From the NCBI GenBank assembly GCA_903813345.2, contig CAIIXF020000001.1, positions 21,824,001-21,888,000 of the forward strand: a DNA stretch of 64,000 bases, read 5' to 3'. The stretch is from Owenia fusiformis. Taxonomy: Eukaryota. The notes beneath the pieces were generated by a model. That model was not told where the DNA came from. It saw only the letters and a list, made by a program, of their open reading frames with translations, and ran no database searches. A program made the position numbers and the translations under genes. Positions within the stretch are counted from its first letter, which is position 1, and every line of letters begins with the position of its first letter. This document shows, piece by piece, positions 23,852-57,900 of this stretch.

Positions 23852-24078
23852 TATACTATTGTGATCAAAGAATAATTATGTCTAACATACAGGATAAGTG
23901 TTTTCGAATTTGAAATCATTGCTCATGCTATCTTTTACTCCGATGAGTCAGTTTAATGCACAGTCACAAAATTCAGCAGTTGCTCCCTTTATTAACATAG
24001 AGCAGTTATCTAATTGGTATTGATTTTCGGGGGTTATGTGTTAAACTGCAATGGGAGAATTATTGCTGTTAACATATT

Positions 24079-34901: not shown

Positions 34902-35270
34902 TTATAACATGCCTATGTGCAAAGTGTACACAAGACAGCGGGCCAATATAAGTTTTGAAAAGCCCGCGCCCGCTAACTTTCTGATTGGTCAAGGCGCTGA
35001 CGTCATAACCAATCAATCGAAGATAAAACTGCGCGAGCAATTTTTCTAAACTCATTTCAATCATTTTCAAATCATTTGTTTGTCAATTCTATAAGAAAAC
35101 GGTACTCTCTGACCAGTCTACATCATCATAGGTATGTTATAAATCGTTTATGTCACTATCGTGGCACATATGCCCTCGGTTCTCAGAGATCAATGTCCCT
35201 CCCAAGGTCGGGCCATATATCACTGAGATCTCGGGCATATATGCCACGATAGTGACATAACCTCTAAATA
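34902..35270 (-). mobile_element. Terminal-hairpin element upstream of the 949-aa gene
   Basis: Hairpin TTATGTCACTATCGTGGCA..TGCCACGATAGTGACATAA (35148-35260); inner IR TTATAACATGCCTATG (34902) / CATAGGTATGTTATAA (35127). Confidence 0.65.
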
Positions 35271-35548
35271 TAATTCATTTTTGTATAATTATGAAATTGA
35301 GTCATACCAGCACTTTTTAATAAATTAAACTTTGAGGACAAATTTTCTTTGAAAAGGTTACATTGGGACAAAGAGTTAGCAGATGGGCAAATTTTTAACA
35401 GGAAATTATTCATGCAGCTAAACAAAAATATAGAACAACTACTTACATTTATGAAATATTATTATTGTATGATATATCAACAGATTCACACAATAAAAAT
35501 ATGCAGTTAGTTATTTTTCTTTTTAGATCAATGTGATAAGGATAAAAT

Positions 35549-38398
35549 ATGACGCAAATCAAGAATATGAAGAAAATCACTTTGATGTTGGGTCTACTCT
35601 TAAATGTGACTTTGACAGTTTCACACCAACAAAATTGGAGGAACTTTTATCCAAATGCATTAAAAGTATCTACTGAATATAAAATTGATGAACAAATCAT
35701 AGACAAGTATATTGTAGCCGAACAGAATGCAAAAACAAAGATCAGACATTTGAGAGAAGCTCCTGAAACTGAACGTGATCATGCAGAAAAACAAGAGAAA
35801 AATGGCCTGATTGTTTATGCAGCATCACCAGATTGTTTCGCAACCATTCCTCAAAATGTCGCAAAGACAATACGAAGCCAATTTGCGAAAAATCTGCAAT
35901 GTAAAATATCTGATCATGTGGTTGACAACTCTAAACTTGGAGCTCTATACAAAATGAAAATTAATGTTGAGACACTTGGAGATGACGATACATCTCAGAT
36001 GCACTCAATAACACTGGATGCCATCAACCGTAAGAAGCAGCATGAATATGGCTTTGTACCGTACCAACTAGAGTTCCTGTCATCTGCCCAGCTGTACCCC
36101 TATAAGAACACTGTACAGAAGAACAATGTTTGCAGAGGAATTAACATCAAACTCAATGTCAGTAATTGTTATGTCTCTGACCTTGGACCAAGTGGTTTCT
36201 TTGATAAAACACTTAAAGTTGTTATTCTTGATGTGCTCAGTGAGTTATTCCTAAAGGATTATCAAATATGTGACCTTAATGGAGAAAAATCTGGAACATG
36301 GCACCCAATGTACCTCAAATGCTGTTACAGGAAAGAAGTTAGGCTACAAGCATCAGACTTCGACAACCCAGACACAGCCCAAACACCTCAGTATACAATC
36401 GGCTGTGAGGATCCCAATTTATGGCAAAAGATCCTATTGATATTCATACAGATCTCAAGCCTAGTGGCCTTCATCTTAAGCCCACTGACAGTCTACTGGT
36501 TGCAGCTATATATTCCTGATGATCAAAATCACACATCATGCTGGACTAGAATTAAATCATGTTGTAGATGCATGTTGAAAAGATCTAAATGTCAGAAAAG
36601 GAATAAAGACAACACTGAGGCTGATAATACAAATGATGATGACGTAGCTATGGAGAGTGATGATGTCAACAATGGAGATAACTGCACTAAAACTGGACTA
36701 TTGCTGTGTGTCCAATGCAAAAGGGAAGAGAATGCTATTGTTGCAAATGATGACAAACAAGAGAGAATGAGCAATCAAGCAAGACATAGAGATTCAAGTG
36801 AGGGAGACAGTGGTGTAACTGATGTACTAGTGAAAACGCCTGCAAATAAAACTGATGTTAACATTGAACTAGACAATATTGATAAAGATGTGCCAGTGAA
36901 CAGTGACGAAGACAGCTCTCAATCAGATGATAGCATAGATGGCCGAAAGAAAAAGGAAAATGTCTATTTTGATGGAAAGGCAGAAATGTCTTTCAGGTTC
37001 TCATATGTTCTTCATTATCTGTTTCTATGGTTCTTTGGTGGCTATTTGGTGACACTACTCCGAAGGTTTCTATTCATCTATCTGTTCTGCACTCTTCTCT
37101 TGTGTCAGGTGTATGTCCTGATGTCCTTCAATGGACTGGTCCTAGAAATGAATCCACTGATGATGTATCAGTCCATGGCCTTGAAATCCTTCATTAAATC
37201 TATTCTTGAGTTGACTGTTGAAACTAACACTGTTCACCAAAATAGCACTATGGAAGAAAATTTGGCATATGTCACTGAAAAAGCAAATTGGAGTTTGATA
37301 ATTGGTTTCCTAGTGTCTCCATTAATTGTAACAATTGCTATATATGTATTTCTGTTTAACCCATTGACGAGTCGCCACTCGATTAGTAAGATCCTGTCAT
37401 GGAAAGAGGACTATAGATTCTATGGGCAGCCTCTGCCAGATGATTTGCAAACAGAAATTGATCAAGGTGAGCCACCATTAAAGGTTGCCTACAAAAACAT
37501 GAAACATAGAATGTATCTTATATGTTCTGGTTCATTTTGGAGATTTTTTTGGAGATCTTTTATAAAGGGTGATGAAAGCCCAACATCTAAAGTTAAGAAA
37601 GTCTTGAACAAAATCAAAGTCATTCTTAAAGCAATCCTTTTTGCTGTTCCTTTGATTTGGTATTCATTCCCAATATTTTCCATTACAAATGGTATTCAGA
37701 AATACCTCAAAATGTACTACAGAACACATACTCGACCAAAGGCCATCACAATAATGACCTTAAACATAATTGGCGCAATCATTGTGTATTGTATCATTGC
37801 TGATTTTCTCTTCCTTCACATCCATGCCTTTACATTCCTGGCTTTGGATATACTATTTGGAGATTCCGTATCATTTCTAATTTTCATCGGTGCTCTTGTG
37901 TACTACCTTAAAAGAATATTTGATGATGTTGAAGATGAATATATTCACCTTAAGGGACTACTTTTTGAGGAAGGAATCACTCTTGATGAGGAAATGCTGG
38001 TGCAAGGGAAAATACTCCTATGCACAGATGAGCCATCTCGTCCCCTTATAGAGAGGACTGATGATGGTGATATCATGATGCCCAGGTACATCTTCAGCGA
38101 GGTTAGTGAAATGATCTTGCCCCTCAGGAAAGCAATCTACAAGGCTCTCAGGAGATTCCTTATTACTTTCTTTCTTCTTGGCTTCCTACTCATGGCTGTT
38201 GTGCGCAAACAGAGCATGTCCATTTCTCGAACTGATTCAGAAATATTTATTGCACTTTTCGCAGTTGCAATCCCAAAGTTGATTGGCTTGGTAGATTCCC
38301 AGCATACAACTGATGTGGCAGAAAGGAAGAGGCGATATAGAATCAGAAAGATATTTAAGGCTATGACAGTGATGGAGGAACGAAAATCTCTGTCTTAA
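35549..38398 (+). CDS. Uncharacterised 949-aa multi-pass membrane protein with signal peptide (CDS in one exon)
   Basis: Uninterrupted 2850-nt ORF; hydrophobic N-terminus, Cys-containing ectodomain, TM near aa 295-320, Cys-rich then acidic loop, roughly 7-9 further hydrophobic segments; splice acceptor TTTTTCTTTTTAG ending at 35526, just upstream of the ATG. Confidence 0.85.
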   Translation: MTQIKNMKKITLMLGLLLNVTLTVSHQQNWRNFYPNALKVSTEYKIDEQIIDKYIVAEQNAKTKIRHLREAPETERDHAEKQEKNGLIVYAASPDCFATIPQNVAKTIRSQFAKNLQCKISDHVVDNSKLGALYKMKINVETLGDDDTSQMHSITLDAINRKKQHEYGFVPYQLEFLSSAQLYPYKNTVQKNNVCRGINIKLNVSNCYVSDLGPSGFFDKTLKVVILDVLSELFLKDYQICDLNGEKSGTWHPMYLKCCYRKEVRLQASDFDNPDTAQTPQYTIGCEDPNLWQKILLIFIQISSLVAFILSPLTVYWLQLYIPDDQNHTSCWTRIKSCCRCMLKRSKCQKRNKDNTEADNTNDDDVAMESDDVNNGDNCTKTGLLLCVQCKREENAIVANDDKQERMSNQARHRDSSEGDSGVTDVLVKTPANKTDVNIELDNIDKDVPVNSDEDSSQSDDSIDGRKKKENVYFDGKAEMSFRFSYVLHYLFLWFFGGYLVTLLRRFLFIYLFCTLLLCQVYVLMSFNGLVLEMNPLMMYQSMALKSFIKSILELTVETNTVHQNSTMEENLAYVTEKANWSLIIGFLVSPLIVTIAIYVFLFNPLTSRHSISKILSWKEDYRFYGQPLPDDLQTEIDQGEPPLKVAYKNMKHRMYLICSGSFWRFFWRSFIKGDESPTSKVKKVLNKIKVILKAILFAVPLIWYSFPIFSITNGIQKYLKMYYRTHTRPKAITIMTLNIIGAIIVYCIIADFLFLHIHAFTFLALDILFGDSVSFLIFIGALVYYLKRIFDDVEDEYIHLKGLLFEEGITLDEEMLVQGKILLCTDEPSRPLIERTDDGDIMMPRYIFSEVSEMILPLRKAIYKALRRFLITFFLLGFLLMAVVRKQSMSISRTDSEIFIALFAVAIPKLIGLVDSQHTTDVAERKRRYRIRKIFKAMTVMEERKSLS

Positions 38399-39913: not shown

Positions 39914-42900
39914 TCAAGTCACTTTTGAGTGTATATAGTTTGTGTCTAGCATGACTTTGCCCAGTTTTCCTTCCCTAAAAGCCCTCAATGCAATTGCTGA
40001 TGCAGCATCAAAATTCCACCTGTACATATAGCCTCCTGCAATAAATGATATACACATACATGTACATGTAGTTTTTAAATCATGTCAAGGAAGGGGTCTT
40101 TTAAATAAGTTTTCCAAAGTCATATTACAAATATATTTACAATCACAAGTTGTAATATGAGGTTATATAATGGTTCTTTCTGTATATCGTGTTTATACTC
40201 GAGTGAGTATATGATATATTCACAAGTGAGCGTAGCGAACGAGTGAATATATTATATTCTCACGAGAGTATAAAATGCACGATATACAGAATGAACCATT
40301 ATATAATCTTATTATGCCACTCTTAGTTCAATTACAGTGATTCGAACACAATCATAACAATTAAAAACCATAAAAATATCCCATAGCCAACTCAATAATA
40401 CTATCAGTTATCACACGTTTCAGCATGTGATACGAGAAATATTCCACGAAAGTAAAAATTGTATCACACGTTTCAGCATGTGATACGAGAAATATTCCAC
40501 GAAAGTAAAAATTGTATCACCACGAAAGCGAACCTTGATTGGTGATAGCTTTTTGCTTGAGTGGAATATTTTCGTATCACATCAGCTGAAACGTGTGATG
40601 ACGATTTTATCATATAAAGTATGTTTTTATTTTATCATTATAACGTCATTTCCTAGGTATCAAGGTGTGTGACGTCAAATATTATTTCTGAACAGTTTGA
40701 ATAGTGTAACGTCACTACACTGGAGCTTTTACTTATATGACGTCAGTAATTAGTTACCACTAGTTACATGGTTGTGATATGGGAAATACCAGGAAGGCTA
40801 CAACCAATCAGATCACTGGAATTTTACATACTATGTGATAATGATGTTGATCTCGAACCATATATGACGTGGCTTGATTCTAGCAAATCATGCCGGAACC
40901 ATTTATGACGTCACTTGATTCTGATTTTTTTATTTATTAGTTCCCAGAATGCACTTCTACAGTGGTATACGCTGGAGTGTATACGGAGGAGTTGTATACG
41001 ATGACGATATACCACTCTCTACTGTATATCATTGTTATAGACCCATGTTATACAACTGTAATTGGACTTAGAGTGGTATAACATAAATTATATCATAAAA
41101 TTGTTCAAATTTTACCAGATTAAAGCTGAGTTAACACTTTTTCATAATCCTGAACATATTTCTCTGGAAGTGAGCCATTTCTTGTGGACATTCTTTTATG
41201 TTTAATCTTTATGCACTGAGGAATGATAGGAAATTTGAGTTACAGATGTATTGGCATCTGAATGTTCATGTTTTCAAAGCACTAAAGTTTAAAAAACGCT
41301 CTCAAACCTACATGTAACATTGTTGACGTCACAGTCTCATTCAAGATTAGCAAAAGGTCAATATGGAAATCTGTGTGATTAATACACTGTTATTTAAAAT
41401 ATTTGGATGGATACATTAGCCCCCAATAGGTTATAATTGACCATTTGTGATCAAATTATAGATATTACTGTCCTATTATCACAAATCATCAATTAGAAAC
41501 TGTTTAAGATTTGAATGTAATAGCAATGACCAAATTTGGACTTATTCTTGTTGTTTGAAACAGATGCACCACTGTACATACCTACTACTGCCTTCCGCTT
41601 TTCTATGTATCCCTGTTCTTTAGCCACATGTGCCAGAAACAAGGTGACATCATCAGTGGGAGCAGACAGTTTGAAGTGATCTACATAACTGGAATGTAAA
41701 CATATAAATCAACTTATTGTGATATTAGTTTGTGACTGATCCATAATTACTTGACAAAAAATATAAATACAATGTTTAGACAGTTTTTTAGTCAAGGACA
41801 TCTCTAATGGAATAGCACAAAAATCCCAGCTAAAAACTAATTTCAATTATCTACAAACTAAAATCCTAACTCAAAACATTGATCGAACCCTCATCATATG
41901 CTAAAGAAATTACATCTTATCACAGGGACCCTCAAAGTTTCTAATAATTAACATAAAAAGAAATTTACATACTCAAACTGTTTGTGTTTGTTCAACCAAT
42001 ACAGCATATAGTCAACTATCACATCAGGTCCAACCAAATGGTCTTTTAAATTGGCTGAAATAAAAAATAAAAAAATCAGATAAAATAAAAGCTAGTAAAC
42101 TACACGACAATTTACAATTCATATAATTTTACACAGATTTTCCTAAGTTTTAAATGTTTAAATGAATGATTATCACATTCACATTTTCCATCCTACCTAG
42201 AAACTTCTGGAAAATACATACATAAAATGTATTGTCAGAGGCTTCATAGGTGATTGAAAGAATGTTCACAAAAAGGTAACAGTCCACCTGTTTATACAGG
42301 AGAGCATTTGAAATTACTACCTACTGCCATCTTTATACTGAAACTAGAAAAACAGCAACTCCATGGAGAAGCAAATCCCACCTAACAAAACATATTTTGA
42401 TTATTAGTGGCCATCTTGAAAATTCCTTCTTGAGCAGAGCTTGTTTCTCCCTAGGTATCAACATGTAAATGCTTAGAAGTATATAATATGTGTATAATTT
42501 TAGCTATCTTCCCTTTTAGTTTTTGAGTGTGAAGTTTCCAATTTAGTTTGTCATCAACTAGGACACCAAGAAAATTAATGTTATCCTTCTTTGTAATAAT
42601 ATTTTTGTCATCAATTTTTATCTTGATTTCTTCAGGGTTATACATTCCTCTTTTATATGAAAAGAATAAAAAATTAGTCTTTTCAATACTAAGCGATAAC
42701 TTGTTAGCCATGAACCAGTCATTGACTTTTTTAAGTTCATTATTTGCAACAGATATGAGTTCTTCTTTCGACTCATTTGAATGTAAAATACTGGTGTCAT
42801 CTGTAAAAAGTAAAAACTTCAATATAGCAGAAGTAAAACTGAGGTCATTTATTTAAATAATAAAAAGTAGAGGTCCTAGCTATAAAGGATATGAACCTAT

Positions 42901-45900
42901 TAAAGAGACTCTATTGAGACTTCTCTGTGGCATTTTTTCTTTATTCCTTTTTGTTTTGAATTTTTAACACCATAACATTAACTAACTACTCAATATGCAA
43001 CTTTTCACCACGTAGAATTTTAAAATATTAAGTTTGAAAATTCCATTTTTATAATGGAGCTCAATTGGAAAAACTACATAATTTGAATTATTTTCAAACG
43101 TAGCGGCGCAATTTTGATAAAATTGACAGATATAATAAATATTGGTAAGACGAAATGTTTGATGAAAAATGAAGAAAATTCACCGTCCTGGTTACGCAAA
43201 CTATAGAAAAATCTGAAATAATCATAAAAACCTGTAAAAATAGATTGAAGGGGGTGATATTCATTTCTAATGTGCCTTTCACTACTACAGGGTAACCATA
43301 ATTTTGGTACTGATTTGATTTTTCAATGAAAATCATTTCTATAGTGTATAGTCAGTTTAAATAATACAATTATCGAAATCGTTGTTCCCTCTTCAAAAGA
43401 GAAGACGCGAAAATCTTTCCTTATAAGGGCAAAATATTTCCCATGATGCAGTTCGCGGAGGAACAAATTTATACTTCCTTATTTTCCCTCATAGGTTTAA
43501 CATGGGGATTTTCAAACCTATTTTTCAAACGATATATTCGTTCATATTCCCGTACGAGAGTACAGAAAAAATTATTAGAAACGATTGATCTCTCATTAAT
43601 CTTAATATAACAGCTATTTTTTTCATTGTATTAATTCATAGCGTGGTGAAAACGATGATTGAAAAGTGAGAAAATATTCCGAAAGAGAAGGTCACGTGAT
43701 CAGTAGACTAGTCGCCATATTGGAAAAAACAATTCCATTCGACTTTTAATACTTTCATGCCAATCTTACCGCACTACAAACTGCGACATCGATGCAACAA
43801 CTGAATAAAAGTATTCATCTTCAAATTACATTATAGAGTTACGTTGAAAACCCACAAACAACTGAGCAGTAGACCAAAGAAGACGCGTCGCTATTATCTA
43901 GGTCAATCTGTTCAGTGGTCCGAAAGCAAATGTATAGTACTCGTTTCCGAATTTTGTTGTTCATTGTACAATCTTTTATTGATTAAACTCGGTATACTGA
44001 CCATTAAAGCAATGACAAAGAAGAATACTTACGATGGTGTCATGGTTTTATTTAGCGTGCGGGTGTAAAAACAAAATTGAGTAATTAGTTTGATTTAGAA
44101 CTTTCGTGTCACGCAAATAGCTACGCGAAATGCATAGTGGGAAAATATTGACCAATCAAATTTTGTCCTTTTTGAGTGCTTTTTCAGTGCATATTTGCGA
44201 ACGTTCTGATTCAAAGAGCGAACTGCGAAAAGGAGAATTGCTATACATGTATTTCTTTACTGAACAGTGCAATCATTTATTTATTTATCAACAGTAATCC
44301 AAACTACATATTATATAGTTAGTAAAATATTAAAATAATTCTATTAAAATTAAAGCATTGAGATGATACTTAAATAATTACATATTATATTGATAGGCAT
44401 ATTATAGTATAGGATTTAAGCCAATGACTAAATGCATTGTAGATGATTAAATCTAACATATGTCCTGATTCTAGACTAAGAACGAGGGTGGTAGTCCGAA
44501 TTCAAAGCCTAGACTAGAAGACATAAGTGAATTGAAGCATCCACTATTCATTGAATCATGTGCTTTAATTCAATTTCACACATTGCAAAATATTTTTTAC
44601 AATTTCACTTAACAGAATGATATTTTTTCAAAGATATGTTGTACTTTTAGAATCATTTGCTTCAAAGAATTGAACTATGGCGGCCTTTACTCGTTATTTT
44701 ACGATTTTTGCTGTAACTCGAAAAGTAGTCGAGCGATTTTGTTCATATTTGGTATATGAATACTATAAGCATGGCACACTGTCTAATGACTCTTCTGGTA
44801 GAAGGCGGCCATTTTAACGTATTTTACTATAACACGGAAAGTAGTGGAGCGATTTTGTTCATATTTGGTATGTGAATACTATAAGCATGGCACACTGTCT
44901 AATGACGCTTTTGGTAGAAGGCAGCCATTTTGAAAAATGGCCGTCATTTTAACGTATTTTACTATAACTCGAAAAGTAGTAGAGCGATTTTGTTCATATT
45001 TGATGCGTGAATACTATAAGCGTGGCATACTGTCTAACGACACTTTTGGTAGAAGGTGGCCATTTTGAAAAATGGCTGCCATTTTTGCTGTATACTTTGT
45101 TTGTAAAAAAAATGCCAGCCATGGCTGTTCGATGGGATTTGCTACACTTTGGTGTTGCTGTTGTCTAGTTGAAGGATGGATGGACGGACAAATGGAGGGG
45201 TCTCCATAGCTTATCCCCTAATCTTCGTTGGATTGAACAATTGTGAATATGGTTATTGTTGGACAAATAAAACTGATTGAATGTCTAAAAGCAAATAATG
45301 AAGTGGTAATTTATTTTAAATCATTAAAAATCTCAAACATGCTTGCTTTGGTCTAGTCACTTAATTCCTAAATGTCCCGTAATTTGTATCTATATACCTT
45401 ATTAGATGCAGTGAAGGAGTTAAATCATTGGGATATGAATAAATCATGCAAAACATATTTTGTACATATTTCTCATCATTTAGGGTTACCCAGTAGTTTA
45501 CAAGCTGACCTTTGCAAAATATATTTCACTTACTATCCTCATTCGCTATCACGCTATCTAGTTTCTTTCCAAATTGGCCTGAATTGCCTGGTTTATTGGT
45601 TTTAGCGAACCGTCCATTTCGTTGAACCATCATTTTGCTAAGGTTGTTTGTGATGAATATACAATATTCAGTTACATATAACTGCAACTTTATGCAAGGG
45701 AAGGTAATTGTGTGAGAGCACATAAAGTACAAGAAGTATTGACCCACTTGTCTCAGTGAAACTTATAAACAGTGCATAAAGTTTTTTCTGTGCAATGATT
45801 GGCTCACAGTTACTTATAGTCACTGGCATGTAGCGATTATAGCGGTCCTGTCTTGGCTTATTGAATTGTTACGAAGTTACGTATGCGGTGCGGAAGTTAG

Positions 45901-48900
45901 AGAGCAAATGACCATCATTTCAATGTAATAGTTTATGCAGGAAAATTGAGATTAGGCCATTGGAGTATTTGTTTCATGCATTTGTAAAACGTTACCCACT
46001 CATAGGTCATACTTATCGTTAAACCAATAACTCAAATATATGCCCTTGTACACCGATCACCTGTTGAAATTAATACAGGCCGATTTCAACAAATGTAAAC
46101 GGCGATATATTTAAAATCGTATTCAAGCATGACCACGTCCCAACTTCTTTTGTTTTCTTTACAACTAAGCTATGACTGCAGTCTATTCAGTGTTGCGTAT
46201 CGAACCTTGTTTATTATAAAAATAGTGCAACAACAAGCAGAATTCACACATTTACCTTATACTTATTCTCAACTGAAGACATTGAATTTATCTCTTAGGT
46301 TTTACATTATAAATATCTTAACATGCAGAATACGAAAATAGAGGCTTAGGCCCAACTTTGTATGAATTTTATGAGAATAATCTGATTTTAGAGAAATGAA
46401 AAGAAAAATGTCCACACACTACACAAAATATTTATGGTTCCCCGGGAATACGTATGTGCTGCTTGTATATTAGAATCGTATTCCAGTTACAGAAAGAAGT
46501 ACATATCATGCTAAACTATATACAACAGTTATGCACTTGGAGGTTTTGGATACAGGGAATATCCCGAGGGATACATAATATGTCTTCCCTTGGTCCCTCG
46601 GGAAGAAATATTGTATATCTCTCGGGATATTCCCTGTATCCAAAACCTCCAATTGCATAACCCCTATATAATGGCCAAGGGATAATCCCAATATCCTGAC
46701 TATAGGATAATATGTTTATCCCATACCAATCTTGGTCATCTGGTTCACATTGTTAAATCGTGGAAATATTTTAGAATATTCATGTCCAGTTTTGTTTTCT
46801 TGGCCGTGGGCGGATTTTCATGTTCTCTCAAATAATCCCATATTTATTTTCTCGAATTTTTTATTGATAAAGTGGATGCTCTCTCCCTTTTTTAACTATC
46901 AAACAGACCCTGATTGTCTGTGTTTTCTCCATTGCCGTTTACAGTCATTCCGCGAACGTTACAAATTATGAACAAATATGCAAGCGGCGATTATGACGTA
47001 GCGGGCAGATATACTACATCTGCCCGCTTGGAGCGGGACGTAAAGCTTTATCCCATGGTTGCAAGGAGGATATAGATCGAATATCACATGATGATATATT
47101 TGATATGTGGATCAAGATATCATATTTTAGCAAACAATTTACGAACCATCGAATATCACTTTTAAACTATCGAATATCACATCTTAAATAGAGGATATCC
47201 TATGATTTATGAGTGATATGATTTTTATCCACGAATGGATATGATATCTGCACGAGTGAGCGTAGCGAGAGATTAAAATCATATCACGAGTAAATCATAG
47301 GATGTTCTTTATATTCCATAGTTAAAGTCATCATCAGAATCTTCGGGAATTAAGTGATCTAAAACGAATTTTCCAAACGATACGGCGATATTGACACTTA
47401 GCCTCGTTTTGAGTCTAAAGTAGCAAAAATCCATAAACCATGGCATACGGCGCCGCATGTCATGGCTAAAACACCGTATGCTATGGTTAAGTGAAAATTT
47501 GCCAAAAATATCATATTTTACCACTGATTTCAAAAATACCGTTTTTATTTTGACATGTTATCCTATGGATATCATGCTAACTATGGAATAATATAGGAAT
47601 ATCCTATGGTTTTGAAAAAATATCATTTATATCCATGAATGGATATTGATATCTTCATGAGTGAGCGCAGCGAATGAGTGAAGATATTTGTATCCATGAG
47701 TGGATATAATTGATATTTTTGAAAAACCATAGGATTGTCCGTTTATCCCATGGAAAATCATCATCAGCGAAAAAAGTTGAAAAATATAATTTGAGAAAAA
47801 TTTTGAAAAAATGAAAAAAAATTGAAAAAAATGTGAAAAAATGTTGAAATTATTTTTGAAATTTTGAATTTTTTTGAAATATTTTTGAAAATAATTAAAA
47901 AATGTAAAAAAAAATTTGAAAAAATTCGAAACCATCGAATATCACTTTTCAAACCATCGAATATCACTTTTCAAACCATCGAATATCACTTTCTAAGACG
48001 TGATATTCGATAGTTTAAAAGTGATATTCGATGGTTTGTGAATTTTTTGCTAAAATATGATATCTTGATCCACATATCAAATATATCTTCATGTGATATT
48101 CGATCTATATCCTTGCAACCATGGGATAACAAGGAATATCCTATGGCTCTGAAAAAATATCACTTATATCCATGAGTGGATATTGATATCTTCGCGAGTG
48201 AGCGCAGCGAATGAGTGAAGATACTGATATCCATGAGTGGATATAAGTGATATTTTTGAAAAACTATAGGATTGTCCGTTTCATCCCATTGGGAATTATT
48301 ATCCAGCGAACATTGAATAGTCAGATAAATTGCAATGGAAATTCCATTTCGTCTGACATTTTGATTGCGATAATTCAACGAACGTCATATACGTGACGTA
48401 ACAGAGTGGTTTGTATTTAATGCGAACGCCGTAAAAACAGGATCCCAAAAAATAAAAATATATAATAAATGTATAATTCAATTCAATTCAATTCAATTTA
48501 TTTCATATTTCTTATATAATATACACTATAAAAACAAGCCGCTAGACACCCTAGTGGGTATATGTTGCGGTCTAACAGAAATCATTTAAATGACATCTAG
48601 ACTACATATAAAAGAAAACACTTATATTATGTTACATGTAGGTATATAAAAATGGTATTAACAATTAATCTAAGGATGTACAATGTAAAAATGTTACAAA
48701 AATCAGGTATCAGTATAAAATCAACAGTATAGTATGATATTGGTATTATACATTATCGATAGATGAGTAGTTTTTTATATGAAGATTTGAAAATATTTAG
48801 AGTGGAGCATTTTTTAATATCATGTGGTAGAGCATTCCAAAGATTAGGACCTAGATAGCGAAGGGAAAGTTTAGAGCATTTAGGGATATGAAAATAATGC

Positions 48901-51900
48901 AATTGTCTTGTGTAATGATGATGAATACTAATGTTGATATCAAACAAGTCTTGAAATAGATTTTTTGGAAGACTGGGGTGCGTATTAAAGATTTTGTACA
49001 TGAACTGACCAGTACAATATCTGTTGACATCAAAAATATTTAATATGTTAAGATCTTCAAATAAGGGAGCGGAGTGAGAAAGTCTATCCTTATTTAAAGC
49101 TAGCCTTAAGAATTGTTTCTGCAGTTTATGTAGACGATCATAAAATGATTTAAATGTGTTACCCCAGATTATGTTGCAATAATTTAATTGAGAGTGTATC
49201 AATGAGTAGTAAATTGTTTTGAAACTGTCTATTTGAAGTAGATGTTTAATGTGATAAAGAGAACCAATGACGCGAGAAATCTTTGTTTCAATAGATTTTA
49301 TGTGCTCTTTAAATTTCAAGTTTTTATCAATAATAATTCCAAGAAAGTCAATTTTATCCCGGAAATTTATGTTCTCATTGCGTATTTTGAGATTCAGATT
49401 TGTTTGATTTTTTTGGGGTCCAAATAGAATAGCATTGGTTTTGCCAATATTAAGTGAAAGTTTGTTTGCTTTTATCCAGTCATCTATTGAATTCAAGTTT
49501 GCATTAGTTCATTTAAATCATAATCACTATCAAGAAGATTGGTGTCATCAGCAAACATAATAAATTTTAGATTAGGGTCAACAAAAGGCAGATCATTTAT
49601 GTAAAGAATAAATAATAGTGGTCCAAGCACCGAGCCCTGCGGAACACCACAATTTAGAGATGATTGTTTAGATTCATAATTGTTAATGGTGACATATTGT
49701 TTGCGGTCTTTTAAATAACTTTCAAACCAGGACTTAGCTATTCCTCTGATGCCATAATATTCAAGTTTTTGTATCAAAATGTCATGATTAATAGTGTCAA
49801 AGGCCTTGGAAAAATCTAATGTTATGCCAATGCTCGTTTTCCCCAAATCAGTTGATTTTCGAATTTGTTCAATGAAATATAAAATGGCCATGTAGGTAGA
49901 GTTGAATTTCTGAAATCCAAATTGATAAGTAAAAATAATTTCAAAACGTTCTAAAAAACCAGTGAGTTTGGCGTGCATGAGCTTTTCTAACAATTTAGAA
50001 AATACCGATAAAACTGAAATTGGTCTATAGTTCGAAGGATTTGTAGTGACTCCTTTTTTAAATACAGGTGTTACTTTGGCCAATTTGAGGGCGTCTGGGA
50101 AAATACCAGATTTAAAAGATAAGTTAAATATATACAAGAGCGGATCAATTAAAAACTGTCTTACAGACTTAATAAGTGATGGTAGAATCCCATCAGGTCC
50201 AGGCGAGGAAGATTTTAGAAGACATATTTCTAATTCAAGCTCAATTTTTGAGGTCTTTTTGAGATAAATAGATGATTGAACTTTTTGAGCTCTTGCTAGG
50301 TATTCATAAACAATCGTTTTGCTGAATTAATAAAAAAAATTGAAAAAATCAAAACCATCGAATATCACTTTTGAAACCATCGAATATCAATTTGAAACCA
50401 TCGAATATCACCTTTCAAAAAGTGATATTCGATGGTTTCAAAAGTGATATTCGATGATTTGGGAATTGTTTGCTAAAATATATCTTCATCCACGTATCAA
50501 TTATATCTTCACGTGATATTCGATCTATATCCTTGTAACCATGGGATAAATAAGGGTTATGTACTGGGAGGTTTTGGATACGGGGTTTTTCCAGAGGGAG
50601 ATATGCATATCTACCTGAGGGACCGTAGGGACAGAAAGTAGATGTGCATATCTCACGAGGGATGAACCCAATATCCAAACCGACCGTACATAACTGCTTT
50701 ATCCTATACCAAGTAGAGTTTTCAGTAGTACAAGGTGTAAAAAATAAACAAATCATTCATATGCAAAGTCATTTTATTGCATTTCCACTTTTTGGAAGCG
50801 GGAAGATACGCCCCGAAGCGGGAAGATATGCACCGAAGCGGGAGATATGACGGGAGATGTGGAGGTTCTTGATATGGAAACCTCAAAATCAGGATACGGG
50901 ATATATCTTACCAACTTATCTCCCTAAAACCCTACTTGGCATAGGATAAATCAAGATAATTTCTACTCGCATCTAGTCTATTCCACATGTTTGGGAAAAG
51001 TGTACAGGAAAATCTCCATGTTCAATTGATGTATGATCAACCCTCATAGGGGTCAATCCAGTTGTCCGAAACCCAGTTGTCCGAAACTCAATTCTCCGAA
51101 ACCCAGTTGTCTGAAACCAAGTTCTCCGAAAATTAGGGGATCTTATCAAAAAATACAATTTCTTAAAACGAATCTTGTCGCAACCTCTGCGAATCACGAC
51201 AGCATAACATTAAATTTTGAATCACGTTGACATCATTGCAAAATTAGGCTAAATATGCTAAGTCAAGACGTTAATTAGCCCACGAAAGTTCATGGGTAAC
51301 TTGAGAACTACAAAATACAACCAAATACTTTTCGAACGTACAATAGCAATATTTCTCACCCAACGTCTTCATAGTTTTAGGAACGTATTTTAAACGCATG
51401 ATAGCCAAATATATCAAGATACTATATCTGCCTAAATGAAGTTATCTAGTGTTGACAAAGTTTTGAAATATATTTTATCCAGATCCATCAGAAATTAACT
51501 TAGCCAATACATTTGTTCATAAGAATTCTTTAATTCTACCTCGTTCCCAATACGTCCTCAGACAGACAAGAAATTGAAGTCACACCCGTTTGTTTGCGTG
51601 GCATATTTATACGTATACGCACTTTCTCTGATTTTTGTCAAACAAATACATTTCAGGAGAAGAACATAAAAAACAAATGCCTGAAACGAATGCCGAAACA
51701 TAAATCCCAAGTGATTAAGTTTAGAATGTTTTATTCTTTTACGATTTGATAAGAGACTGAGACTAAGAAATTAAATGCGACGAAATATTTTGACAACGTA
51801 ATTTGTATACTGTTTTATTCTTAAAGTTCTATGCGATACCTTATTCTATCTGTTTCAAAATGTTTCATTTTATTTTGCCTATATAAAAGAGATTGAAGAA

Positions 51901-54900
51901 GATAAGATAAACTGTTCCGTAATATATATTGTGTTTTAATAACCTTTTTTAGAATCACAATGTAAAATAAATCTCCCGTTCCTGCCATTCTGGTAACGCC
52001 ATACAATGGATGCAATTCAAAGTGAGAGAGAGAGATCTATGAATATCAGAATGCGTCCATGCCATTAATTTGGCCAAATACATGGCATGAAACTGACGTA
52101 AGCTTAAGTAAGCTACGCCCCCCCCCCCCCTTTCTCTGGTAAATTATGACTTTATTTTTCGGAGTAATGGGTTTCGGACAACTGGGTTTCGGGGAATTGG
52201 GTTTCGGACAACTGGGTTTCGGACAACTGGGGTGTCAATATATACGAATCGAATGTATTCTCGTGTGCATTACAATATCGCCATTGAAACATTTTTGGCC
52301 TGCAATGGACGTATAATGAATTAGAATATGAGGCCGTGTTATCATTCTAATGTAAAGTCATGGTATTTACTGTAGTATTGGGTTGCAAGTTAATATCAGA
52401 TTCAATGCAAATTAATCATCTAATATCAGATGCGCGATCAGTCCAATAATCTAATTTCAGGTCATCAGTTCGATATCTAGCACTTGTTCTAACGACACGG
52501 TATTACTAGACTATCATATTATAAATACACACACATATAAAACAATCAAACTGGTACACGATATAAGCACGACTGCTCTTTCAATTGAGTATAAATGTTG
52601 ATAAACTTACCCGGAAGCCAAGACATACACGTTTAGACGATGCTATTTTCAGTTCAGTGTAAGAGTAAATGCCCGGATATCGAGGCTTTTTCGTGTAAAG
52701 TTTTAACCAAGCATCTAAAATCGGGTTATATTGCGTGTAGAATTTATCGATATCAGGGCCGCTACATGCCAGTGTATAGTGTAAGTTATTTTATTTCTAT
52801 ACAGTGTGGAATAGAGTGTATAAACTTTTACAGTTTCAAGCAGGTTTTAGTGTTTTCTGACCAATGATATATTCAGACTTATTCATTTCACGATTATGTA
52901 ATATCACTGAAGTATTATCACTGAAGTGCATCAATGACCTTACTAATATTCAAAAGCTCACCATGTGAGCTAAATATACCACAGTGATAATGAGTGGTTT
53001 TAGAACAGTTTACCATATTTTTGACTATCAATACCTGACGTGGGATTATAAATACCGTAGATTAACATGCTTCTGTACAAATGAAGTCCATGAGGGAACA
53101 TGCAGGGGTGAGTCTAACAATTTCAAATATTTGAATGCCTTAAAATGAACATTATTCAATATTTTCAATTCAGTCAATATCATTTTGAATAAAATCTTAA
53201 AAAGGACCATTTAATTCAACATGTTAATACAATCTCAATTTTCATGTGGCCTTAGATTGAACCAAACTTTTTTGGGCCTTTTGGGGTTTCAAACTGCTTG
53301 TAGTGATAAAATAAATGCTAAACTACATTACACACTTTCTCTGAATATTTTTACTCTTTTAATTACAGAAATCAAAGATGCAGAAATATATTTCACTGGT
53401 GGTAGGAACATTTGGGATGTGGTTGACAGGAGTCTTATACAGTTTCAACACATATGCACTTGCCTTGAAAAACACTTTCAACTATACACAGTCAAATGTG
53501 GAGTACATAGCTGCAAGTGGTGACCTAGGACAAAGTATTATGTTTCCTGTTGGACTAATATTTGATAAATTTGGACCAAGACCTACTTGTACATTTGGTC
53601 TGATTCTCACTGGAGTTGGATTTACACTATTATGGATGAGTACAATATTCAAAACCTATTTTGCTCATAATGCCTGGCTGTTTTGTGTCATATATTCAGT
53701 TGCAATGTTTGGAACAGCATTTCCCAATATCGCAAGTTTAGCAGTAAACAGTAAGAACTTTGAGGAAAAACACAGAGCTACAGTGCTAGTGGTTCTTGGT
53801 TGTGTATATGGGATTTCTCCAACAATATTTAGCACCATCTATCAAGGATTTTTTGTACAAGGCCACGTTAAAGATGCTGAGAATCAAAAGTACGGAGACT
53901 TTATGCTGTTTTTAGCTGTGATATCAGTAGCTATAAATTTGTTAGCCATAGCGCTACTTAAGGAAATACCAAGAAATGAAACAATCCAAACAGAAGGAAC
54001 TGAGTTGAATGAACTCTTCAAAACTTTAGAAAAAAACAAGGAAGATGATAAAACAGATGATGCTAAATATGTAGATGAGAAAACTACACTGATTCCAGAG
54101 GCTGCAGGTCGGAAGAACACTACAAGTCTTCGAGATTTGAACAGCTGGCAAATTATACAAACATTGCAATTTCATTACTTCTTTCTAATATGTATCATTT
54201 TGGGTGGAACTGGTGGTACATTTGTCAACAATATCACCATTGTCTTGAGATCTGCTCATCGAGAACATGAAGTGGCAATTTTTACTATCTGCCTTCCCAT
54301 TTTCAGTTCATTAGGCAGAATTTGTATTGGGTTAGGTTTTGGTTATATCTTCCAAAGATGGAATAACATTCCTAAATCATCAGGTTAATTGCCATGTTCA
54401 ATAATAATGTGCATCAGCCTTATTGTTATGATTTCCTTCTATCATAGTTTCATTGGGTTATTCAGTAGTACCATTATGATGAGTTTTGCATACGGGGCTT
54501 TTTTTTTACAAGTACAATGTGTCAACATTGAATTGTTTGGTTTAAAATATGTTGGACAGAACCTTGGGATCTTTTTTCTAGGCCATGGCATTGGAATGTT
54601 TGGATTTCATCAATTGTTTGGATTTAGTTATAAACTAAATAGCCCATTAGGATCAAATGAATGTTATGGAGAATCTTGCTCAAAACGGACATTTCTTTTG
54701 CTCATGATTTTATGTTTTTGTGCATTATTTTTAAACATTCTTCTTGTTAAAATTGAAAGAGATGCCAAAATGAAGCAAAAAGAAACCGTAAGAATCCATT
54801 GCCAAACCCAGGATCTGGCAGATCTGCCAAATTAAGCAAAAATATATTTTTTCCAACCACTGGTCTTTATATAATAATTTTACATAAAGTGAAGAAAATA

Positions 54901-57900
54901 TTTGTACAATTATTTCATACACCATATTAGAACATATACCAAAATATTGTATTGGTATTGTTGTTTATTAGAATGTATTACATACAAAGCTTTTGTATTT
55001 GATCAATGGAGCTGAAGGTTGGCTATATATTCCTGTATTATTAAGCCGCCAAACTTTTTTGCCAAGACAATCTTTTGATGTCATGTTTCATTTCTTCCAA
55101 ATTTCACTCGCACACAGACGTGTGATGTCATTTATATAAGGTAGCCATGGAAATAAAGGTATGTCATACAACAATTATGTTCGTATCATTGAATATATGC
55201 CTTCGGTCTGTCGTAATATAGCCCTCGCAAGCTCAGGCTATATTGATGACAGACCTCAGGCATATATTCAATGATAGGGACATAACTGCTAAGAATAGCA
55301 TTGGCATTTCAAAATCAATTCAATATCAATATGTATATTTAGTGCAAAACTACAATTAGTTGATTTATTTCATTGAAACATTTTGATCCTGTTACAAAAC
55401 AAGGGTAGTTTGTCCCTAGGCCACAGCATATAAAATTTGAACCAAATCAGTCGACTAGTATCTAAGTTATCAAAGATTACGTTCTTTTACGAAAAATGGC
55501 AGCCAATTTAAAATTGAACTTCCATCTTGAAAATCCCTTCTCGAGTAAAGCTCCTATGTCCCTAGGCATCAGCGTGTAAAATGTGAACCAAATCCATGTC
55601 CCTAAGCAACAGCATATAAAATTTAAACCAAATCGGTCAATTAGTATTTGAGTTATCAATGATTATATTTTTTACAAAAAATGGCCGCCATTTTGAATTG
55701 AGTGGCCATATTGTAAATTCCTTCTCGAGCAGAGGTCCTACACCCATGAGGCATAAGCCTATAAAATTTGAATCAAATCCGTCAACCAGTATTTGAGTTA
55801 TTGACTAACAGATGGATGGACAGATGGCAGGATGGACGGATGGGTGGCTTTTTATATCCCCCTCGAACTTTGTTCGGTGGGATAATAAAACCAATGTGTG
55901 TGATTTCTCTCTTTGATGTTCTTGTACATACCACACAGAGCAAGTTTCATTCCAACTTCCACATCTTTGATGTTTGGGTTCATTATACCAGGTGTATCAA
56001 ACACATAGATCTTTGGCCTATTGCACACCTAAAAGTACACAACATAAGTAAGGATATTTGTCATAATGAAAGTGTCACGAATAGCTGAATTGATATGGTA
56101 TACTGTATGTTAAAAATATTCAAAAAGAAGAAAGTCTCCATTTTTGTAAATTATATTTCAAAGTTGTCAATGTAATTCTCCACAATTCAATGGCAGCACA
56201 GAAGGTTTAACTCCGTGGAATATATATATATGTATGTATATGATGTGATATCATGTGTTGACGAATAAAAGAGACTAAAATAAATAAAGAGAGTGATGAT
56301 TCTTGTATTATTTTACCTTTCATGGATAGAAAAATATATAGGGCTTTGAAAGAGAAAGAAAAATAGTCAAGAAGTCTACCTTGAGGTTGAAAGATTTATA
56401 CATGATACCAAAACATTATGGTACATATCTTTCATGAAACTGATCGATCTAAAGATGATAGCTGACTCTATTGACCTTGACTAAGATCAGATGTGATTTC
56501 AATTTTCAATGTTTTAGAAACCCTATCTAAAATATTTGGGATAAAATTGCCTCGTATATACCTTATAATAGTGTTTTTGGCCATATCTAAAAAAAAGAAT
56601 TGTTCCTTACCCTGATTCTTTCCAAGACACTTCTAGTAATCCCTGGTACTGCACCTACACTTGTAGCTTTGCCTGAAAAAACAAATTAAGGTTCAAAAAG
56701 GGGTTTATTTACCTAACATGTGAAGATCTCCATTGTCACGCTGTGCTGAAGTTCTCTTCTGGTGTATTGATTTATCTAATTATTATTATTATATCTTGGT
56801 TACCGTCATATTTGGCGAGCAATACCTCATTGGTATATTCCGTATTTTACACTCGAAGATAGAGCCAGAATCCCCTCCTTGGAGGAGCCCTGTGTTCTTT
56901 TATGTGCACAGGTACATGTACACAGACATACAGGTACACACCACAGCCTTTTATATGAGTCGTGAACCACGTTATTCCAGATAATATGGTATATTTGAAA
57001 GAGAGGTAAGCTGGAAGTTACTAAAATAACTCAAATAAATAGAAAATATTTGAGCTACTATTCACCAAAAGTCATTTGAGGGCAATTTGTATGTCTTACC
57101 TCCTTTTTTTAATTGTGTTTGACGTATTGCATTTATAAAAGAAGATTTGCCAACATTTGGAACCCCAAGAATCATCAGGTTGAAGTCAACTTCCTAAAAA
57201 AGAACAAAATATGGTGAAAAATAGCATTAAGTGAAGTGACCACTTTTATCCTACATTTTACATGTGCTTTAAGTTTTATTGGTATCAAAAGCACCACAGA
57301 ACACCAAGTAAGCAAGAATTTTTTTTCTAAACATCTCAATTTCAAAATCCTAAGAACTTAAACCATACCCTATCATTATTCACATTTGCATTGTCATACT
57401 CAAGAGAAATTAATTCTAAAATCCACTCTACATGTATCATAGTTAAGAAAAACACAAAATGAAATTCTGCGCAAGGGGCTAATGTAAAAAATCATTATCT
57501 TATATTTATTACACAAAATACATGACATAATATATTAATAATGTTACCTGAGCTCTATTATATCTATCCTCAGACTCTATGAGCTTTTTGAAGGCAGGCA
57601 CAATCTGTAAAGGGAGAAAAACCTGTCATTTCTGTATTATGCAAGTACCTGTACATACAAAGCAACTTCAAGTATATAGCTACAACACTCTCCCTTTCTT
57701 TTCCCTGCTTTGAGAAAGTTTATGGTGAATTTGAATGAATTAAACACTTTTAAACCAGGGGCTTTCTATAGCCATGGTTAAACACAGGGAAGTAATTCAA
57801 AATTATTTACCCAGCCTTTTTTATTTTTAAGCATATTATTGAAATAACAGACTATGCCAAAATGGCAAGTATTTACACCCTTGATTACATAAATCCCACA

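Follow-up and report, generated by a model that had tools for sequence, protein, structure and literature searches.

How do hairpin-ended repeats of different sequence families come to lie end to end, in one orientation and with almost nothing between them? The question is raised by a region of the window (the whole 64-kb stretch of DNA that was analysed, from the genome of a marine animal) in which the first-pass annotation had described a head-to-tail train of four units at 47188-50950. This train was confirmed, and it is in fact longer: it spans 46519-50982, where five units that each end in a hairpin (U0 to U4) are accompanied by two fragments, with U0 (46519-47046) and W (47047-47187) extending it to the left and F5 (50947-50982) to the right. 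All units lie head to tail on the minus strand; viewed on the plus strand, the long palindrome is the start of every unit. Judged by architecture alone, the region is probably a minus-strand, head-to-tail cluster of rolling-circle transposons that are non-autonomous and belong to the Helitron-like-element-2 class (HLE2; Helentron/Helitron2). In the published descriptions, non-autonomous forms of this class are named HINE or DINE-1-like and are moved by RepHel, an HUH nuclease-helicase.

Architecture of the train

In the 5'-to-3' direction of the minus strand, one order is common to the units: a short inverted repeat, a body, a matching inverted repeat, a long palindrome and a tail. The 5' repeat (TTATCC[C/T]AT...) lies at or a few bases from the 5' end, and the body carries short repeats in tandem or a microsatellite-like stretch rich in A/T; a tandem-repeat search found central repeats of 22 nt (2.9 and 3.1 copies) and 20 nt (2.8 copies). 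The inner repeat copy stands just before the palindrome in 8 of 8 units, 2-10 nt away (54 nt in X, a solo unit elsewhere in the window). The palindromes measure 114-174 nt, and the tail after them, 3-10 nt long, ends ...TAT(A). With up to one mismatch, TTATCCCATRG occurs 18 times in the window (2.84 expected), a count reached in 0 of 100 shuffles. Folded as DNA and scored against dinucleotide shuffles, all nine hairpins (9/9) gave z between -4.2 and -15.1. When the hairpins of U1, U2, U3 and X are aligned, 15 of 48 predicted pairs retain pairing through changes on both sides, and the loop TCGCTRCGCTCACT is almost invariant. A 5' hairpin of the Helitron2 type is not clearly present in the first 45 nt (z -2.7 to +0.1).

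U1 (47188-47591, 404 nt) has its 3' palindrome at 47188-47312 (arms 47188-47229 and 47271-47312; z = -8.6) and inverted repeats at 47312-47324 (3' copy) and 47578-47591 (5' copy, TTATTCCATAG on the minus strand), which pair at 13 of 13 positions. U2 (47592-48129, 538 nt) has the 3' tail TATA, a palindrome at 47596-47740 (arms 47596-47657 and 47679-47740; z = -10.7) and repeats at 47743-47753 (3') and 48119-48129 (5', TTATCCCATGG) that pair 11/11; its body holds an A/T-rich microsatellite-like stretch (47769-47925) and a tandem array of three 22-nt repeats (47929-47992), after which inverted copies occur. In U3 (48130-50549), the palindrome lies at 48132-48281 (arms 48121-48193 and 48217-48289; z = -7.7), 22-nt repeats at 50352-50460 and the 5' repeat copy at 50539-50549. 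Its middle part is split by other DNA, which includes a 5'-truncated, frame-broken non-LTR retrotransposon fragment (LINE; 48475-50331, minus strand) with an (AATTC)n tail at 48475-48498 from the tandem-repeat search, minus-strand ORFs at 49493-50326 and 48753-49508 (RVT_1, E = 2.2e-29) and a depth of about 6-27 times baseline. U4 (50550-50950, about 400 nt) has a palindrome at about 50554-50692 (arms 50573-50614 and 50638-50679; z = -7.0), a 20-nt tandem repeat at 50795-50849 and a 28-nt inverted repeat (I19, 89%) whose copies at 50695-50722 (3') and 50926-50953 (5') pair 25/28; reads place the 3' end of its family at 50546, four bases within the TTAT of U3. The proposal that an inner repeat pairs with the far end of each unit holds for U1, U2 and U4; in U3 the 3' copy (about 48283-48292) is degenerate, with 7 contiguous matches only.

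By sequence comparison, U2 and U3 are one family. Identity is 93% between their hairpins (150 nt compared) and 89-93% between their far ends; U2 positions 1-177 match 48132-48310 at 89.9% and positions 314-535 match 50332-50549 at 88.8% (direct repeats D3 and D8). The U1 hairpin, about 81% identical to this family over 75 nt, marks U1 as a relative, and U4 is distinct, which gives three families, in line with the three or more first proposed. The three junction strings are present exactly as first quoted: CTATGGAATAA-TATAG-GAATATCC between U1 and U2 (47581-47604), CATGGGATAA-CAAG-GAATATCC between U2 and U3 (48120-48141) and CATGGGATAA-ATAAG-GGTTATG between U3 and U4 (50540-50561), with spacers of 0-3 nt. 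A check of the unit flanks for direct repeats found no target-site duplication at any unit, where the first-pass annotation had noted no obvious one, and a T/A-rich overlap of 4-6 nt leaves every analysable boundary ambiguous with respect to the T-T target rule. We simulated the random insertion of nine elements into 64 kb in 300,000 runs, counting junctions that joined intact end to intact end in the same orientation within 4 nt. One junction arose in 866 runs, two in 2 and three in 0; with its three junctions of at most 3 nt, the end-to-end arrangement is therefore beyond chance.

The margins of the train are less regular. U0 (minus strand) is a chimera that has lost its 5' end. Its body, with the 3' inverted repeat TTATCCCATAC at 46716-46726, was assigned to the V family by alignment with the units Va and Vb, and half of a V-type hairpin meets, at 46666/46667, a complete 152-nt palindrome of the U4 type with its own tail (46519-46670; arms 46519-46589 and 46600-46670, 87% complementary; z = -15.1). 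At 46667, 362 reads from V paralogues diverge; beyond the U0 hairpin lies single-copy DNA, where depth drops to about 7 (bin 46362-46542). W (plus strand) derives from an oppositely oriented U2-family element, of which the 5' end (141 nt) is present and the remainder absent; it begins TTATCCCATGGTTGCAAGG, extends to two 22-nt repeats and shares 94.2% identity with the reverse complement of 47994-48129 (inverted repeat I1). Of an unrelated, high-copy MITE with inverted repeats, F5 (plus strand) preserves the final 36 nt; it is truncated by the 5' end of U4, and its left part (about 380 nt) is absent. From 50947, 735 reads run leftwards into a conserved, different sequence (agreement 0.8), and 688 end at 50982 with unrelated flanks; the minus strand holds an uninterrupted copy of this MITE at about 10484-10905. 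Given the loss of the 5' end of U0 and of most of W and F5, some junctions are therefore other than clean insertions.

Related units, all on the minus strand, occur elsewhere in the window. Va (545-1040) is full length, with a repeat pair matching 12/12 (hairpin z = -4.2), and Vb (1063-1455) has a damaged 5' repeat (z = -4.8); separated by 22-26 nt and in the same orientation, they form a second small train (545-1455) of the family that supplied the U0 body. X (40148-40841) has a 174-nt palindrome (40148-40321; z = -11.7) matched in its loop by U1, U2 and U3, internal 53-nt repeats, the repeat pair ATATCCCATAG / TTATCACATAG (9/10) and a further candidate end at about 41096.

Independence of the units in raw reads

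The train is made of separate mobile elements. Raw reads identify the units as dispersed repeats, with depths some 10 to 75 times the single-copy level, and neighbours differ two- to five-fold (U1 283-531, U2 78-340 and U4 52-420, against about 7 in a single-copy bin). At 47188, 566 reads from U1 paralogues start, with unrelated, AT-rich flanks (agreement 0.44); at 50546, 372 reads (X16) and 99 contigs (X1) from U4 paralogues do the same (agreement 0.36-0.38). Since paralogues of U1 and U4 thus have unrelated 3' flanks, the train is not one composite element. The centre of the U4 family is variable, as paralogue joints skip 50723-50816. A joint from 48125 to 47588, seen in reads and contigs, connects a U2-type 5' end via TATAG to a U2-type hairpin, a form absent from the window. 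Among the 24 of 2,745 rows listed, none shows loose ends at the 5' ends of U1, U2 and U3, and the 5'-side independence of these units therefore rests on the differences in depth.

Alternative explanations and a possible mechanism

The units might instead be interleaved cut-and-paste MITEs, namely an inverted-repeat element, (TA)TCCCATGG...CCATGGGA(TA), such as a Tc1/mariner-like one that duplicates TA, and a short palindromic MITE, the hairpin, inserting beside it. Indeed, TTATCCCATGG...CCATGGGATAA can be parsed as TA + TCCCATGG...CCATGGGA + TA, the hairpin stems of V and U2/U3 bear a motif resembling the inverted repeat (ATCCTATGG vs ATCCCATGG), U0 combines a hairpin of one type with the body of another family, and hairpins without a recognisable body, for which no convincing repeat partner was found, occur at 55172-55288 and about 35143-35262. 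We nevertheless consider this unlikely. The hairpin lies on one and the same side of the body in 8/8 units, 2-10 nt from the inner repeat (54 nt in X), which is not expected from independent insertion; hairpins and bodies of U2 and U3 are similarly diverged (93% and 89% identity), as expected of one unit; the hairpins themselves lack a TA or other duplication; and the outer edge of the hairpin is where the U1 and U4 paralogues end. Solo 3' ends, moreover, are expected of rolling-circle elements, for which an excess of 3' ends has been published. Local duplication or rearrangement (a U2-to-U3 tandem, an inverted duplication giving W, or rolling-circle read-through multimers) could likewise account for the adjacency of two members of one family, for the 94% identity of W to the inverted far end of U2, which exceeds that of U3 to U2, and for the missing parts of U0, W and F5, which do show rearrangement; published work also describes Helitrons arrayed in tandem after the stop signal was bypassed. 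As a source of the whole train it is improbable, however: U1, U2/U3, U4 and the U0 body belong to different families, so that duplication cannot explain U4-U3, U2-U1 or U0; U2 and U3 are about 7-11% diverged and have unlike 3' tails (TATA vs TTG); and every family has many dispersed copies.

Two further readings concern the enzyme and the assembly. The first-pass annotation had offered both an HUH enzyme and a tyrosine recombinase of the Crypton type; by architecture only, namely the Helitron2/Helentron layout, the former is supported; the latter is not. A same-orientation head-to-tail array, imperfect palindromic ends of attC size and the lack of target-site duplications would suit tyrosine-recombinase cassettes, whether Crypton-like or integron-like, the latter with the hairpin serving as an attC-type site. 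They are very improbable all the same, as the short asymmetric inverted repeat and the 3' palindrome are, in the descriptions compared, the HLE2 signature. In one of these, Cryptons are described as having short terminal direct repeats, not found at the unit ends, and no terminal inverted repeats. The units are gene-free, and the 10 window ORFs of at least 130 aa, all scanned against Pfam, gave matches to reverse transcriptase, Glce, MFS and, at the borderline, HLH, with none to Rep, helicase or recombinase; the earlier remark that no recombinase gene is visible holds for these ORFs. Integron integrases, for their part, are a bacterial system. That the assembly produced the junctions artificially, by collapsing repeats, is hardly credible: high-copy repeats do make up the region and no listed contig spans the entire stretch, but a contig from another study (X12, 154 nt, 6 differences) crosses the U1/U2 junction (47533-47686), contigs of X5 and X12 connect the single-copy flank with U0, and raw reads are present in 30 of 30 bins.

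Under the preferred rolling-circle reading, the published model of the class suggests that a RepHel (HUH nuclease plus helicase) encoded elsewhere would nick the 5' end and unwind in the direction of the 3' end, at which the palindrome would act as the stop signal; a single-stranded circle would then be released and inserted at T-rich sites. A 3' tail (...TAT) followed by the next 5' end (TTATCC...) may resemble both the joined ends of such a circle and the T-rich sites used by such elements, and resident ends would therefore be preferred for cutting and insertion. New copies could thus be placed exactly against old ones with orientation kept, including those of other families served by one enzyme. 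U0 would fit the stop-signal role, in that the copy ends at the first complete, though foreign, hairpin, with single-copy DNA beyond. It is reasonable to infer that insertion was aimed at the end of a resident element.

Comparison with known systems

Insertion sequences of the IS200/IS605 type (IS608) transpose as single strands by a bacterial Y1 HUH enzyme without a helicase. Like the train units, IS608 is hairpin-ended, makes no duplication and inserts beside a short motif that is its own cleavage site; a target motif of this kind would turn resident ends into targets. This is an analogy only, and nothing in the train shows that the target supplies TTAT. Integron arrays resemble the train in their head-to-tail units of one orientation, with imperfect palindromic ends that would fold in single-stranded DNA. 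The train units, by contrast, lack gene, integrase and attI, and their implied class is HUH rather than tyrosine recombinase. The integron analogy is a loose one.

The likeness to non-autonomous Helentrons is closer. As described for HINE/DINE-1-like elements, such as mite HINE-Mo, Drosophila DINE-1 and oyster Cg_HINE (PMC4067079, PMC7492417), the units carry one inverted repeat near the 5' end and one upstream of a 3' palindrome, with tandem repeats and microsatellite-like stretches in the centre; they also have T-rich boundaries without target-site duplication, a high copy number, no coding capacity and a frequent landing in other repeats. They differ in the palindrome (114-174 nt with a loop conserved between families, against 5-10 bp or a 60-bp right module in HINE) and in the tail of only 3-10 nt. 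The described 5' repeat of Helitron2 lies 0-2 bp from the end and its 3' repeat immediately upstream of the hairpin (PMC3627910), a layout also given for Helentron/HINE (PMC4067079) and canonical HLE2 (PMC11417382). Accordingly, the units have an asymmetric 5' repeat 0-2 bp from a 5' end starting with T and a 3' repeat directly upstream of the hairpin, with the 11-13 nt repeat length of Helitron2/HLE2 in U1, U2 and Va. A 5' hairpin involving the 5' repeat, present in Helitron2, is weak or absent in the train units, and the distance from 3' repeat to 3' end is 130-180 nt, compared with 20-30 in Helitron2 (published overall range 20-60 bp). In the Helraiser experiments (PMC4778049), the hairpin loop mattered and the stem sequence did not.

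Tandem or adjacent Helitron insertions have been published for bat, maize, silkworm, Fusarium (FoHeli4) and Metarhizium, as have whole-element Helitron 'satellites' in oyster and one element inserted 2 bp upstream of the 5' end of another; the explanations proposed are that the stop signal is bypassed or that a 5' end receives the insertion. As in the train, same-orientation copies directly adjoin, different families included. Trains are thus already known for the Helitron class, and the present finding is real but fairly ordinary. Unlike those cases, the train has three successive 0-3-nt junctions joining at least three HLE2-type families, and no comparable multi-family train with spacers of zero to 3 nt was found in the published Helentron-type descriptions compared. 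Two features set it apart from the published cases: the length of its palindromes (114-174 nt), whose loops are conserved, and the joining of different families with zero spacer.

Units of the train and their 3′ palindromes

The train extends on both sides past the four hairpin-ended units that the first-pass annotation had placed at 47188–50950. These four, which read on the minus strand, are U1 (47188–47591), U2 (47592–48129), U3 (48130–50549) and U4 (about 50550–50950), and their junctions and hairpins were found in the sequence at the positions originally given. To their left lie a fifth hairpin-ended unit, U0 (46519–47046), and W (47047–47187), which corresponds to the initial 141 nt of a U2-family element and is oppositely oriented; on the right, U4 abuts F5 (50947–50982), a remnant of an unrelated MITE comprising its last 36 nt. 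The body family of U0, V, is also represented by a same-orientation pair 22–26 nt apart, Va (545–1040) and Vb (1063–1455), and a solo unit, X, begins at 40148.

On the minus strand, the units run from a short 5′ inverted repeat through the body to the matching inverted repeat and then the palindrome, after which a short tail closes with ...TAT(A). On the plus strand, each thus begins with a long imperfect palindrome, followed after 2–10 nt (54 nt in X) by a motif, TTATCCCATGG in U2, whose inverted copy lies at the far end of the unit. This pairing, which had already been proposed, is asymmetric and matches at 13/13 positions in U1, 11/11 in U2, 25/28 in U4, 12/12 in Va and 9/10 in X; it is degenerate in U3 (7 contiguous), and in Vb and U0 the 5′ end is not intact. 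Within the window, the end motif is over-represented, with 18 matches against 2.84 expected, a number reached by none of 100 shuffles. A T precedes TATCC at all six 5′ ends, and U1 carries TTATCCTATGG 12 nt from its terminal repeat. While the 5′ ends of U2 and U3 can form a 5-bp TATCC/GGATA stem, the folding energies of the 5′ ends are like those of shuffles (z = -2.7 to +0.1), and a 5′ hairpin of the Helitron2 type is not clearly present. A text search of the literature for the end motifs returned, in the 10 of 18 papers listed, only chance matches to primers.

The train draws on at least three families, as first supposed. U2 and U3 belong to one of them: their hairpins share 93% identity over 150 nt, and positions 1–177 and 314–535 of U2 match 48132–48310 and 50332–50549 at 90% and 89%, respectively. 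U1 is a relative of U2, with a hairpin about 81% identical, and U4 is distinct. Tandem repeats occupy the bodies of U2 and U3 (22 nt, three copies) and of U4 (20 nt, 2.8 copies), and U2 has an A/T-rich microsatellite-like stretch at 47769–47925; the body of X holds a 53-nt repeat in two direct and one inverted copy (40390–40610), the same layout as that of the 22-nt repeats. The middle of U3 is filled by other DNA, including a 5′-truncated non-LTR retrotransposon (RVT_1, E = 2.2e-29) whose frame is broken and which ends in an (AATTC)n tail. Retrotransposon debris is plentiful in the window, with further reverse-transcriptase fragments at 42451–42852 (minus strand; RVT_1, E = 1e-05) and 61308–61838 (plus strand; RVT_1, E = 1.6e-14).

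All eight units with a hairpin and an inner repeat share one orientation. They are antisense to two plus-strand host genes, of which coding exons were recognized: a D-glucuronyl C5-epimerase (22507–23565; C5-epim_C, E = 3.7e-71) and an MFS/nodulin-like transporter (53363–54835), whose frame is interrupted at 54388/54389 and so falls into two parts. An alternative parse of 47047–48129 as a single foldback element with a long inverted repeat was rejected as the main one, because U3 has the same hairpin-to-far-end organization without an inverted left arm. Elsewhere in the window, 24078–24539 forms a large foldback with two 184-nt arms, 90% complementary and 94 nt apart, which is probably another palindromic mobile element.

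The palindromes are 114–174 nt long, with a tail of only 3–10 nt beyond them. Nine of them, those of U1–U4 and five others in the window, were folded as single-stranded DNA and gave z = -4.2 to -15.1 against dinucleotide shuffles. When the hairpins of U1, U2, U3 and X are aligned, the loop TCGCTRCGCTCACT hardly varies, and pairing is kept despite changes on both sides in 15 of 48 predicted pairs. A second hairpin class, with a CCGAGGG-like loop in common, comprises those of V, U0 and U4 and a hairpin at 55172–55288. The stem bases of the V, U2 and U3 hairpins carry a motif resembling the end repeat, so that the 3′ region holds three copies in alternating orientation. As regards function, a passage on Helraiser experiments reports an effect of the loop and none of the stem sequence (PMC4778049).

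Two long hairpins, 55172–55288 and about 35143–35262, have no clear body and no recognizable inverted-repeat partner. They are 72% identical and have about 15 nt of left flank in common (AGGTATGTYATA...), and may represent solo 3′ ends of 5′-truncated elements. About 300 nt downstream of the second one begins an uninterrupted plus-strand frame of 950 codons (35546–38398), which has no Pfam match at E<=0.01. Its translation, with several long hydrophobic segments and a middle part that is acidic and rich in serine, suggests that the frame may form one large exon of an uncharacterized membrane protein.

Family ends, junctions and losses

We compared one raw-read run (X16, of which about 18% was read) and the contigs of three other runs with 46000–51400 at 85% likeness. 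Read depth in X16, summed over both mate directions, is about 7 in a single-copy bin (46362–46542), 283–531 in U1, 78–340 in U2, 78 in the hairpin bin and 107 at the far end of U3, and 52–420 in U4. The units are therefore dispersed repeats with tens of copies at this likeness, and the two- to five-fold gap in depth between neighbouring units shows that the train is not one composite element. Directly to its right, five tandem 15-nt repeats (CCAGTTGTCCGAAAC; 51058–51131) are followed 1.1 kb on by five reverse-complement copies (52157–52231); these arrays, with a depth of 70–150 against a baseline of 7, look like subterminal repeats of another inverted-repeat transposon.

Among the matches listed (24 of 2,745 loose ends and 15 of 304 joints), paralogue reads start at 47188 (566 reads) and at 50546 (372 reads, and 99 contigs of run X1), and the sequences preceding these positions in the paralogues are unrelated and AT-rich, with an agreement of 0.36–0.44. 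These two positions are the true family ends on the hairpin side. Also among the listed matches, U4 paralogue joints skip about 50723–50816, a variable centre, and two reads and one contig join 48125 to 47588, that is, a U2-type far end through TATAG to a U2-type hairpin. As this combination is absent from the window, exact junctions of this sort recur. Furthermore, a contig from another study's run (X12) crosses the U1/U2 junction with 6 differences in 154 nt.

At each of the three junctions between U1 and U4, at most 3 nt belong to neither family: U3/U2 reads ...GGATATTCCT-TG-TTATCCC and U2/U1 ...GGATATTCCT-ATA-TTATTCC, while at U4/U3 the read-defined family end overlaps the TTAT of U3 by four bases. 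At all three 5′ junctions with a known target (U3 in the U4 tail, U4 in F5, W in the V body), 4–6 bases fit both partners, and TTAT may be part of the element or may come from the target. F5 provides one usable 'empty' copy for the insertion site, with 4 nt of ambiguity remaining: an uninterrupted copy of this high-copy family lies at about 10484–10905 (minus strand), is about 420 nt long and has the terminal inverted repeats CTCAGATGCGAGTAG / CTACTCTCATCTAG. In the train, F5 is interrupted at 50947, since 735 reads among the matches listed run on from there into conserved, different sequence.

U0 is a chimera. After a V-family body comes the first half of a V hairpin, which at 46666/46667 gives way to a U4-type hairpin that is complete and has its own tail; beyond it, the DNA is single-copy. 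This is the form expected of a copy that ended at the first complete hairpin it met, and agrees with the palindrome acting as a stop signal. W matches the far end of U2, inverted, at 94% identity, and its inversion is an orientation for which the train model has no explanation. Since U0 has lost its 5′ end, and W and F5 the greater part of their length, the locus also underwent deletions or rearrangements; apart from the independent full F5 copy, none of the missing parts lies within the window.

Class assignment and formation of the train

By their layout, the units fit non-autonomous elements of the Helitron-like group 2 (HLE2, i.e. Helentron/Helitron2). For Helitron2, the relevant text in PMC3627910 places the 5′ asymmetric repeat 0–2 bp from the end and the 3′ one directly upstream of the hairpin, with T as the first base; for Helentrons and their non-autonomous HINE/DINE-1 forms, PMC4067079 describes subterminal repeats of 12–15 bp together with a 3′ palindrome and central repeats, as well as a T–T target and T runs at the ends without duplication; the canonical HLE2 layout is outlined in the same way in PMC11417382, and a passage in PMC7492417 notes tandem repeats in oyster elements of the HINE kind. 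Correspondingly, the 3′ inverted repeat lies directly upstream of the terminal palindrome in all eight units, short asymmetric inverted repeats, expected at 8–16 nt with the 5′ copy 0–4 nt from the end, are clear in five of the eight, and central tandem repeats or microsatellites, which are common in HLE2 and not obligatory, occur in U2, U3, U4 and X. The families may already be catalogued, for example in Repbase, Dfam or the end-repeat tables of PMC4067079 and PMC7492417.

Of the two enzyme classes suggested for these units in the first-pass annotation, HUH-type mobility fits this architecture and Crypton-type mobility does not. Cryptons, according to a published passage, have no terminal inverted repeats and carry short direct repeats at their ends, and we also took a tyrosine-recombinase gene in long copies as part of their definition; here, inverted repeats and a terminal palindrome are present and terminal direct repeats are absent. 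As had been remarked, no recombinase gene is visible: there is none among the 10 ORFs of at least 130 aa in the window, nor does any of them encode a Rep or helicase. Cut-and-paste MITEs (e.g. of the Tc1/mariner type, with TA duplication) have symmetric repeats at their true ends, whereas the read-defined family ends at 47188 and 50546 lie outside the hairpin, which makes the repeats asymmetric; moreover, no direct repeats flank any unit, in line with the original reading, and a TA duplication can be read for the inner body only. Integron cassettes, defined by an ORF and an attC site with an integrase gene and attI upstream, do not match either, as the units are devoid of ORFs save for the intruding LINE fragment and no integrase was found among the ORFs scanned. 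Searches of 45500–52000 with Rfam (gathering thresholds) and ARAGORN gave no matches and thus do not indicate a tRNA-derived SINE or known RNA family. In metagenome contigs, a V-family 27-mer pattern had no match, and a 20-mer of the 22-nt repeat matched one unrelated sequence that has the 20-mer alone in common (L001).

How, then, did these elements come to be joined? Chance is a poor explanation: when nine elements were inserted at random into 64 kb, one intact-end, same-orientation junction within 4 nt arose in 866 of 300,000 simulations, two in 2 and three in none. Local duplication would account at most for the U2–U3 pair, but these units differ by 7–11% and have different tails. In the reading that we prefer, which is inferred, the juncture of a 3′ tail (...TAT) with a 5′ end (TTATCC...) resembles both the joined ends of a transposon circle and the T-rich sites that the enzyme uses. 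The ends of resident elements would then attract cutting and insertion by every family that depends on one RepHel (HUH nuclease and helicase).

A possible accretion system and comparison with known systems

It is conceivable, if rather improbable, that the locus reflects a Helitron-like lineage with an exchangeable 3′ palindrome module and integration at a resident cleavage site, i.e. an integron-like accretion system in an animal genome. The long palindrome, with its conserved loop and end-motif stems, would then be a self-contained stop-and-recognition module, whose exchangeability is suggested by U0 ending in the hairpin of another family, and the enzyme would insert incoming copies where it cleaves a resident element. 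Such a cleavage site may be a TTAT-like motif that the target supplies, by analogy with IS608. If true, zero-spacer trains of unrelated families would arise by hairpin-guided, site-specific insertion.

Independently of this, the classification as Helentron/Helitron2-type elements, which passages in PMC4067079 and PMC7492417 describe as abundant in molluscs and other invertebrates, guards against describing the units as a novel cassette system or as Crypton-like elements. What is noteworthy about them are the precise heterologous trains and the great length of the palindromes, whose loops are conserved; the palindromes, together with the terminator swap in U0, could help to define the RepHel stop signal.

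For Helitrons, published excerpts report different families directly adjacent to one another, tandem copies attributed to bypass of the stop signal, and an insertion 2 bp upstream of another Helitron's 5′ end as well as three copies in tandem. For Helentrons, the same pattern is suggested in the pertinent text as a possibility; measured against that text, this locus is a clear case of heterologous zero-spacer head-to-tail joining in the group. Trains of this kind could plausibly also seed the whole-element 'satellites' that published passages report in oysters. At the same time, the units depart from the descriptions in the relevant passages: their palindromes (114–174 nt) are far longer than the published ones of a few bp (PMC4067079, PMC3627910), the tail beyond the palindrome measures only 3–10 nt, and, compared with Helitron2, a 5′ hairpin is not clearly there.
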